Translations under genes and position numbers: made by a program
Source: a virus
Lineage: Duplodnaviria; Heunggongvirae; Uroviricota; Caudoviricetes
Length of the DNA: 6,030 nucleotides
Reading direction: 5' to 3' (one strand)
IMG/VR virus record: IMGVR_UViG_2711768069_000002
Notes under the pieces: model-generated
Seen by the model: only the letters and a program-made list of their open reading frames with translations
The model's database searches: none
What the model was told of the DNA's origin: nothing
Shown here: in pieces, positions 3,411 to 3,654 of the stretch
Position numbering within the stretch: position 1 is the first letter of the stretch
Layout of the letters: each line of letters opens with the position of its first letter

Positions 3411-3574
3411 GAACGAGCATTGAGATGGCACATAGCCTTGCTCAAATTGGAGTCAGGTTTGTGCCAATACCAGTAGAAACAGACGAAGAATTTCATACGT
3501 TAGCCGCATCCCTTTCACAAAAGCTGGAAATGATGGTGGCGAAAGCAGAAGCAGATGAGAGAGACCAGGTATGA
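3383..3574 (+). CDS. Small conserved lambdoid early-left protein (lambda orf63-like), 63 aa
   Basis: GAGGG (3373-3377) then ATG 3383. The product [23 protein letters not shown]… occupies the syntenic position of lambda orf63. It overlaps the preceding gene in a different frame. Confidence 0.7.
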   Translation: MHKASPVELRTSIEMAHSLAQIGVRFVPIPVETDEEFHTLAASLSQKLEMMVAKAEADERDQV

Positions 3575-3654
3575 CAACCACTGAATGCATTCTTCTGGCA
3601 GCGGGCTTTATATTCTGTGTGCTTATGCTTGCCGACATGGGACTTGTTCAATGA
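3571..3654 (+). CDS. Candidate 27-aa hydrophobic peptide (MTTTECILLAAGFIFCVLMLADMGLVQ)
   Basis: Below the ORF-track cutoff. Its ATG overlaps the TGA of the upstream gene (ATGA at 3571-3574) and its TGA overlaps the ATG of the downstream gene (ATGA at 3651-3654). The product is one continuous hydrophobic stretch with the length of a single membrane helix. Confidence 0.35.
   Translation: MTTTECILLAAGFIFCVLMLADMGLVQ

Follow-up and report, generated by a model that had tools for sequence, protein, structure and literature searches.

The 27-codon open-reading frame at positions 3571-3654 of the window (the whole 6,030-nucleotide stretch of phage DNA analysed here, IMG/VR record IMGVR_UViG_2711768069_000002), which we refer to as ORF27, is in our reading, held with moderate confidence, a real and translationally coupled gene of the pL operon, which encodes a small hydrophobic peptide and also relays ribosomes to the next gene, orf61. 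Judged from the sequence, it is probably a genuine small gene that has been overlooked, in lambda as well as in over half of the complete E. coli genomes. The open-reading frame and its overlaps are present, the peptide is under purifying selection in the ORF27 frame and the junction architecture is kept across mosaics; we infer that ORF27 is translated, that its product enters the membrane, that it passes ribosomes on to orf61 and that it may act on the host. ORF27 belongs among the known small hydrophobic products of short open-reading frames and the known coupled phage genes, and is not a new mechanism.

The window is the exo-xis region of the leftward early (pL) operon of a lambdoid/Stx phage. 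On the plus strand the order is cIII, kil, gam, bet, exo, an orf60a homologue (62 aa) and an orf63 homologue (63 aa), followed by the 27-codon ORF, a 71-aa gene (the orf61 homologue), a 31-codon ORF, the TraR-like orf73 and an ea22-like gene, and overlaps of the ATGA/GTGA type are the norm in the stretch of the operon around ORF27. The 488 bases around ORF27 are 100% identical to the Stx phages BP-4795, P27 and PA28 and to an O157:H7 chromosome, and 97.5% identical, with one gap, to lambda. This 488-base region was found in 3279 of 5426 complete E. coli genomes, and the 131 bases centred on ORF27 were found in 3144 of them, in about 4300 copies. Tblastn with the ORF27 peptide matched 175 phage records, and in all 175 the match spans 80% or more of the peptide with an identity of at least 80%. 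The features to which the text refers are as follows.

3383-3574, plus strand: orf63 homologue, 63 aa, named ‘DUF1382 family protein’ by PGAP; upstream neighbour, its TGA (3572-3574) overlapping the ATG of ORF27
3555-3564, plus strand: SD-like GAGAGAG ahead of ORF27, moderate, anti-SD duplex -5.6 kcal/mol
3571-3654, plus strand: ORF27, 27 codons and a stop, peptide MTTTECILLAAGFIFCVLMLADMGLVQ; the proposed real gene
3571-3574, plus strand: ATGA joining the orf63 stop and the ORF27 start, kept in every upstream context except L007
3586-3648, plus strand: hydrophobic core of the ORF27 peptide, residues 6-26, CILLAAGFIFCVLMLADMGLV
3651-3654, plus strand: ATGA joining the ORF27 stop and the orf61 start, GTGA in about 70 sampled copies
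3651-3866, plus strand: orf61 homologue in its 71-aa form, with the start chosen by PGAP; weak SD, dN/dS 0.31-0.43
3585-3650, plus strand: N-terminal 22 codons of the 93-aa ‘Orf61’, in a frame that differs from that of ORF27 and is without coding constraint
3453-3638, minus strand: antisense 61-codon ORF, with wobble positions in common with ORF27; discarded as the origin of the signal
3863-3958, plus strand: 31-codon ORF, 31 aa, its GTG overlapping the orf61 stop (GTGA); next in the same coupled gene chain

Read from the sequence and from the list of open-reading frames, ORF27 begins with the ATG at 3571 and ends with the TGA at 3652-3654. Its start overlaps the orf63 stop (3572-3574) within GTATGA at 3569-3574, and its stop shares bases with the ATG at 3651, where the 71-aa orf61 homologue begins, within CAATGA at 3649-3654; the start/stop overlaps on both sides which the preliminary description had reported are both there, as ATGA at 3571-3574 and at 3651-3654. 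In the great majority of loci checked, the upstream frame, whose stop the ORF27 start overlaps, runs for 60 codons or more without interruption. We rejected a programmed frameshift joining orf63 to ORF27, as no slippery heptamer was seen on reading the last codons of orf63 (GAG AGA GAC CAG GTA TGA). The same description had called the peptide almost entirely hydrophobic, and this holds, with a GRAVY of 1.66 and a best 19-residue Kyte-Doolittle window of 2.38. Its core (residues 6-26) is long enough for one membrane-spanning helix, and the peptide has the hydrophobic segment of at least about 18 residues that marks a small single-pass membrane protein. The only charged residues are E5 and D22 (net charge -2); direct reading of the sequence found no Lys or Arg, so that the positive-inside pattern of a membrane protein is lacking, and D22 sits within the hydrophobic core. 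The lack of a basic residue together with an acidic D22 inside the helix is atypical for a membrane anchor. The copy in the window carries the L8 allele, a minority form present in 8 loci, and F8 is the majority allele elsewhere.

The preliminary description had taken the two overlaps as the mark of a coupled gene and not of chance. The layout does not suffice for that argument: with the ATGA start fixed, 34% of spacer shuffles and 43% of random 76-mers drawn from the window leave the frame open, so the layout is by itself weak evidence, and as ATGA/GTGA junctions are usual in this operon it is consistent with a gene and no proof of one. The conclusion that had been drawn from it fared better, being supported by a synonymous excess specific to the ORF27 frame, a near-invariant peptide, an ATGA that is kept after the upstream gene is swapped and a weak SD at the downstream start. 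It is the substitution pattern in relatives that lifts ORF27 above chance.

We used polymorphism because truly divergent relatives are absent. The family of the 71-aa neighbour is confined to Escherichia prophages and our searches found no true distant relatives of this protein, which makes a deep dN/dS or covariation analysis impossible. Two apparent homologues of the 71-aa gene at 51-52% (P0095 and P0101, from loci L106 and L107) were discarded, both being the same DNA with indel-ridden sequencing or assembly errors. The test covered 445 loci with 247 haplotypes, some gathered through their similarity to the neighbouring protein, others through exact matches in viral and metagenome contigs or from annotated records; most of the added loci were retrieved by exact 21-mers at 3610-3630 or 3637-3657, inside or at the 3′ end of ORF27, and variation of both classes is therefore hidden at those positions. 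Every distinct variant entered the count once and was assigned a class in each of the six frames over 3575-3650, the 76 bases which overlap neither neighbouring gene.

In the ORF27 frame these bases carry 17 synonymous and 15 non-synonymous variants (dN/dS ~0.27, P=0.0003), or 13 and 10 among variants seen in two or more loci (dN/dS 0.24, P=0.0007), a test which rests on about 32 variants because the sample is closely related (all relatives at least about 87% identical). The result was the same in a smaller set of 236 loci (dN/dS 0.29, P=0.0014). The two other plus-strand frames span a dN/dS range of 0.72-1.27 over the same bases, not significant: the frame of the 93-aa extension has 9 synonymous and 23 non-synonymous variants (5 and 18 in two or more loci; dN/dS 0.72-1.05), and the third has 6 and 26 (dN/dS 1.16). 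The site counts assume equal mutation rates; the frames that share no wobble positions with ORF27 are an internal control in this respect, and they behave neutrally. The comparison of synonymous and non-synonymous change in relatives, which had been put forward as a check, thus gives a synonymous excess in the ORF27 frame and none in the other plus-strand frames. As a control, the 71-aa orf61 gene has 28 synonymous and 43 non-synonymous variants (dN/dS 0.43, P=0.0006), or 20 and 22 in two or more loci (dN/dS 0.31, P=0.0002). In orf63 (counted over 3386-3570, plus strand), the product of which has a solved NMR structure, the synonymous excess is weaker than in ORF27, with 16 and 44 variants (dN/dS 0.75), or 12 and 27 in two or more loci (dN/dS 0.61), not significant in either case.

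The same pattern is visible in the individual variants. Synonymous variants are the commoner ones (Mann-Whitney P=0.02-0.04), and a manual tally assigns 7, 7 and 18 variants to codon positions 1, 2 and 3 of ORF27. One identical peptide, MTTTECIFLAAGFIFCVLMLADMGLVQ, is encoded by 372 of 428 complete copies (87%), and despite this near-invariance positions 3582 and 3600, which are third codon positions, each show all four bases. Frame-disrupting variation in close relatives, which the preliminary description had named as the outcome that would speak against a gene, is essentially absent: across the 445 loci we found one 1-nt deletion, the only indel within ORF27, four stops at the last codon, which are harmless (TAATGA, overlap retained), one locus without a stop and one mosaic loss (L007).

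Two further sources of such a signal were weighed. It is very unlikely, in our view, that the constraint comes from a non-coding element, either an RNA structure or p2, a weak internal promoter predicted for lambda. The region is highly conserved as DNA, and a low-scoring BPROM promoter (TCATATTCT / ATGCAT) inside ORF27 is among those listed by Bloch et al. (2014), but the variation is three-periodic, as neither a promoter nor an RNA helix predicts, and we found no promoter-like site on the plus strand in 3300-4000. An RNA element was rejected, as Rfam gave no match at E<=1 and shuffled controls fold more stably than the RNA at 3555-3670 (z=+2.15). The other source would be the antisense 61-codon ORF (3453-3638, minus strand) as the real gene, which has its third codon positions in phase with those of ORF27. 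Over 3575-3650 a synonymous excess is seen in its frame as well (14 vs. 18, dN/dS 0.32, P=0.002), nearly matching the score of ORF27, yet the ORF27 frame scores better and single changes separate the two. In 11 loci 3636C>T destroys the antisense start codon and is synonymous in ORF27, whilst 3588C>T and 3609C>T change Met to Ile in the antisense ORF and are silent in ORF27. Two thirds of the antisense ORF overlaps orf63, where its own frame shows no constraint (0.73, not significant), it opposes pL transcription and it has no promoter-like site nearby, the only such site on the minus strand in 3300-4000 lying at 3939-3910, away from ORF27. With its start codon lost and constraint missing over most of its length, we rejected the antisense gene as the source of the signal and consider it extremely improbable.

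The literature at present reads the same DNA differently. In that reading ORF27 is an untranslated chance frame inside the 5′ part of a 93-aa Orf61 that starts at the ATG at 3585: several annotators call a gene at 3585-3866, PHROG 303 is built on the 93-aa form, the exo-xis papers take the Orf61 of Stx phages as 93 aa, the orf61 frame is open over 3585-3650 in the copies examined, and in L007 the ATGA start reads in the orf61 frame. We think this quite improbable, as the 93-aa frame shows no significant coding constraint over 3575-3650 (dN/dS 0.72-1.05) and codons 1-22 therefore do not evolve as coding sequence. A hand reading of the haplotype that diverges most gave 6 non-synonymous changes out of 7 in the 93-aa frame and 3 out of 9 in that of ORF27. 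The ATG at 3585 has no SD (-3.9 kcal/mol, near the background median), and PGAP places the gene start at 3651. The published AlphaFold and RoseTTAFold models of Orf61 also differ at residues 1-23, and the three-helix fold takes in residues 24-93 only; the exo-xis review describes the Stx Orf61 model as unreliable over residues 1-23 and as a three-helix fold over residues 24-93 (PMC8614690). A true start at 3651 is consistent with this pattern in the predicted structures.

The gene slot ahead of the ORF27/orf61 module varies as a mosaic and may hold orf63, a Dam-family methylase (567-1124 in L030), a DndB-like 355-aa protein (71-1138 in L007) or a 250-aa protein with no Pfam match (741-1493 in L108). 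A Dam-family methylase gene (Pfam PF05869) takes the place of orf63 in 40 sampled loci; in these 40, homology to the window begins at the ORF27 ATG and the methylase stop overlaps it as ATGA, the overlap being kept although the neighbour has been exchanged, with L007 as the exception. The putative ribosome-binding site changes with the neighbour: in the Dam context GGGAGG precedes the ORF27 ATG (anti-SD duplex -10.3 kcal/mol), and in the orf63 context GAGAGAG gives -5.6 kcal/mol against a window background with a mean of -3.1 (sd 2.7). Ahead of the 71-aa orf61 the SD is weak (-4.0 to -4.7 kcal/mol), and in about 70 copies this gene begins with GTG, which PGAP calls as the start, instead of ATG. 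ORF27 is dispensable in some mosaics. The L108 type, the one common context without it, has the 250-aa gene followed directly by an orf61 variant (MTIEHNN start) which carries its own GAGG. In L007 (Escherichia sp. E1V33), where the DndB-like gene comes first, the stretch that runs from the ATG into ORF27 is shortened by 14 nt; this puts the ATGA start in frame with orf61 and gives a 93-aa fusion and no ORF27, so that ORF27 is not indispensable to orf61. A further locus (L110, E. coli JAOWOI010000001.1, 97-1500) has about 1.4 kb between an orf63 homologue and a 66-aa orf61 variant with a foreign N-terminus, a spacing that suggests an insertion or rearrangement at or close to ORF27.

These junctions bear on whether the peptide has a role of its own. 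ORF27 might be translated merely as a coupling spacer between orf63 and orf61, with a peptide that has no function, and the weak SD and occasional GTG of the orf61 start, the separate SD which orf61 has where ORF27 is absent, the loss of ORF27 in L007 and L108 and the lack of any homologue or family found for the peptide all fit such a spacer. We regard it as unlikely, because a pure spacer should tolerate residue changes, whereas the dN/dS of ORF27 (about 0.27) lies below that of orf63 (0.6-0.75) and the identical peptide persists in 87% of copies despite plentiful third-position variation. As the peptide sequence is under selection, the product itself appears to matter, and not just the act of translating it.

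As a coupled gene, ORF27 would work by termination-reinitiation. Ribosomes ending orf63 (or the Dam methylase gene) would stop at the TGA of the first ATGA and restart on the overlapping ATG of ORF27, aided by a moderate-to-strong SD. The predicted product of 27 residues, with a short polar head (MTTTE) and a hydrophobic helix of roughly 21 residues, would most likely reside in the inner membrane, and termination at the second ATGA/GTGA would pass ribosomes to the SD-poor start of orf61, which would make ORF27 a coupling relay. By analogy with the small membrane proteins of E. coli, the peptide would bind and modulate a larger membrane protein.

The preliminary description had raised two possible roles for such a peptide, modulation of host membrane proteins and toxicity. 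Small inner-membrane proteins of E. coli with a single helix (KdpF, MgtS, AcrZ and CydX; the Hemm/Storz class) are often missed by annotation and often bind a larger membrane protein. The ORF27 peptide resembles them in size (roughly 25-50 aa) and in its one hydrophobic helix, and this class may serve as the working model for it; it differs in having no sequence similarity to them and no Lys/Arg flanking the helix, and in being phage-borne and operon-coupled. Type I toxin peptides (Ibs, ShoB, TisB, DinQ and Hok/Ldr) are likewise short, very hydrophobic and common in prophages. Their genes, however, stand alone with long structured leaders and are repressed by antisense RNA, whereas ORF27 lies inside a polycistronic operon with overlapping stops and starts; no antisense promoter-like site lies near it and it had no Rfam match, so that it does not look like a stand-alone gene with an antisense RNA or its own promoter. 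Typical type I toxins also have basic residues which the ORF27 peptide lacks, its charge of -2 contrasting with their basic tail.

Searches of Pfam, NCBIfam, PHROGs, PADLOC and the PDB returned no significant family match for the peptide, the best being phrog_21538 (E=0.26) and TIGR02507 (E=0.042, below its cutoff), with none in Pfam, PADLOC or the PDB. Its sequence had no match in the literature text searched, and the Ribo-seq supplements of two O157:H7 studies do not list it. Ribosome profiling of lambda (Liu et al. 2013), as reported in the exo-xis review, added ORFs of 7 aa and 31 aa in the exo-xis region, and no 27-aa ORF is named in that account (PMC8614690).

The preliminary description had called the peptide unannotated. 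This is true of RefSeq, where the record of the identical O157:H7 sequence leaves 3575-3650 empty and where orf61 and orf63 are the only features listed at the ORF27 region of lambda (NC_001416), but it does not extend to all databases, the exact peptide being entered as a ‘hypothetical protein’ in some of the older E. coli records of GenBank and present in UniRef as A0A0A2SGE8_ECOLX. In lambda ORF27 lies at complement 30925..31008, with one difference from the window (L8F), wholly within annotated orf61 (NP_040613; 30839..31024, complement) and in a different frame. Both lambda orf61 and the 93-aa Stx Orf61 of PHROG 303 thus have DNA in common with ORF27 (the Stx form overlaps 3585-3654), but they are read in a different frame and ORF27 would be a separate product. 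At the A-run at 3711-3716 of the window, most other copies have six A's, and lambda and its close derivatives have one more (at about 1128-1134 in L003). Because this extra A frameshifts the 71-aa gene, the annotated orf61 of lambda is a chimera, made up of an unconstrained leader frame, then the first 22 real orf61 codons and then an out-of-frame tail; the lambda Orf61 has already been called ‘truncated’ in the exo-xis review (PMC8614690). Many records name the 71/93-aa protein (3651-3866, plus strand) ‘cell division protein ZapA’, and this name looks unfounded because the Pfam ZapA match, at 16.1 bits (E=0.014), falls short of the cutoff of 23.8.

No temperate phage has been studied better than lambda, and the exo-xis region influences prophage induction in Shiga-toxin E. 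coli. If ORF27 is real, lambda orf61 as annotated in the reference record and the 93-aa Orf61 on which structural modelling was done both start in the wrong place, and a peptide encoded in over half of the complete E. coli genomes is then a candidate for an early factor that modulates the host. The main practical consequence would be a re-annotation of orf61 and a re-reading of orf61 mutant phenotypes. Dydecka et al. (2018) made their orf61 deletions by replacing the annotated orf61 sequence, which means that the lambda deletion removes all of ORF27; if vb_24B_7c is the 93-aa ORF, the Phi24B deletion removes all of ORF27 but its first 14 bases. The published ‘orf61’ deletion phenotypes are more lysogens, higher host survival and poorer adsorption of Phi24B, and if ORF27 is real they need re-assigning because the deletions also remove most or all of it. 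A larger proposal, which we put forward tentatively and regard as rather doubtful, is that lambda and most Stx phages carry in ORF27 an unrecognised 27-residue membrane peptide that acts on the host or on the lysis-lysogeny decision, and that part of the ‘orf61’ deletion phenotypes is due to its loss or to the lost coupling.

The scan of genome contigs for the 71-aa neighbour returned mostly lambda DNA in unrelated assemblies. The extra-A allele of lambda occurs in assemblies of Shewanella, Bradyrhizobium, Pseudomonas, Paenibacillus, Oceanobacillus, Kitasatospora and others (L008-L021), several of these contigs are about 48.4-48.5 kb, and the sequence is most likely lambda control DNA remaining in the assemblies.

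The 31-codon ORF (3863-3958, plus strand), MNMKSKIIRELQAPFLLFAFTLKRINQQFRD, overlaps the orf61 stop as GTGA (ATGA in lambda), is not in RefSeq and is labelled ‘putative secreted protein’ in one phage 21 record; it is under mild purifying selection (dN/dS 0.44, P=0.016). From its length and location it is probably the ‘orf2313’ of lambda, a name for which our literature search found a mention in the review PMC8614690 only. The lambda 31-aa ‘orf2313’ lies in the same operon as ORF27, two genes downstream, its start also overlaps the preceding stop, and it too is short and partly hydrophobic; its translation has been reported (Liu et al. 2013, via PMC8614690), whereas we found no such report for ORF27. 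The 31-codon ORF is much less hydrophobic than ORF27 (GRAVY -0.18 vs. 1.66). Inside it, at 3887-3905 on the plus strand, is a terminator-like hairpin (AGGGAGCTACAGGCTCCTT and TTTTATTATT) followed by a T-run, which corresponds to the t2 terminator predicted between orf61 and orf73 (Bloch et al. 2014).
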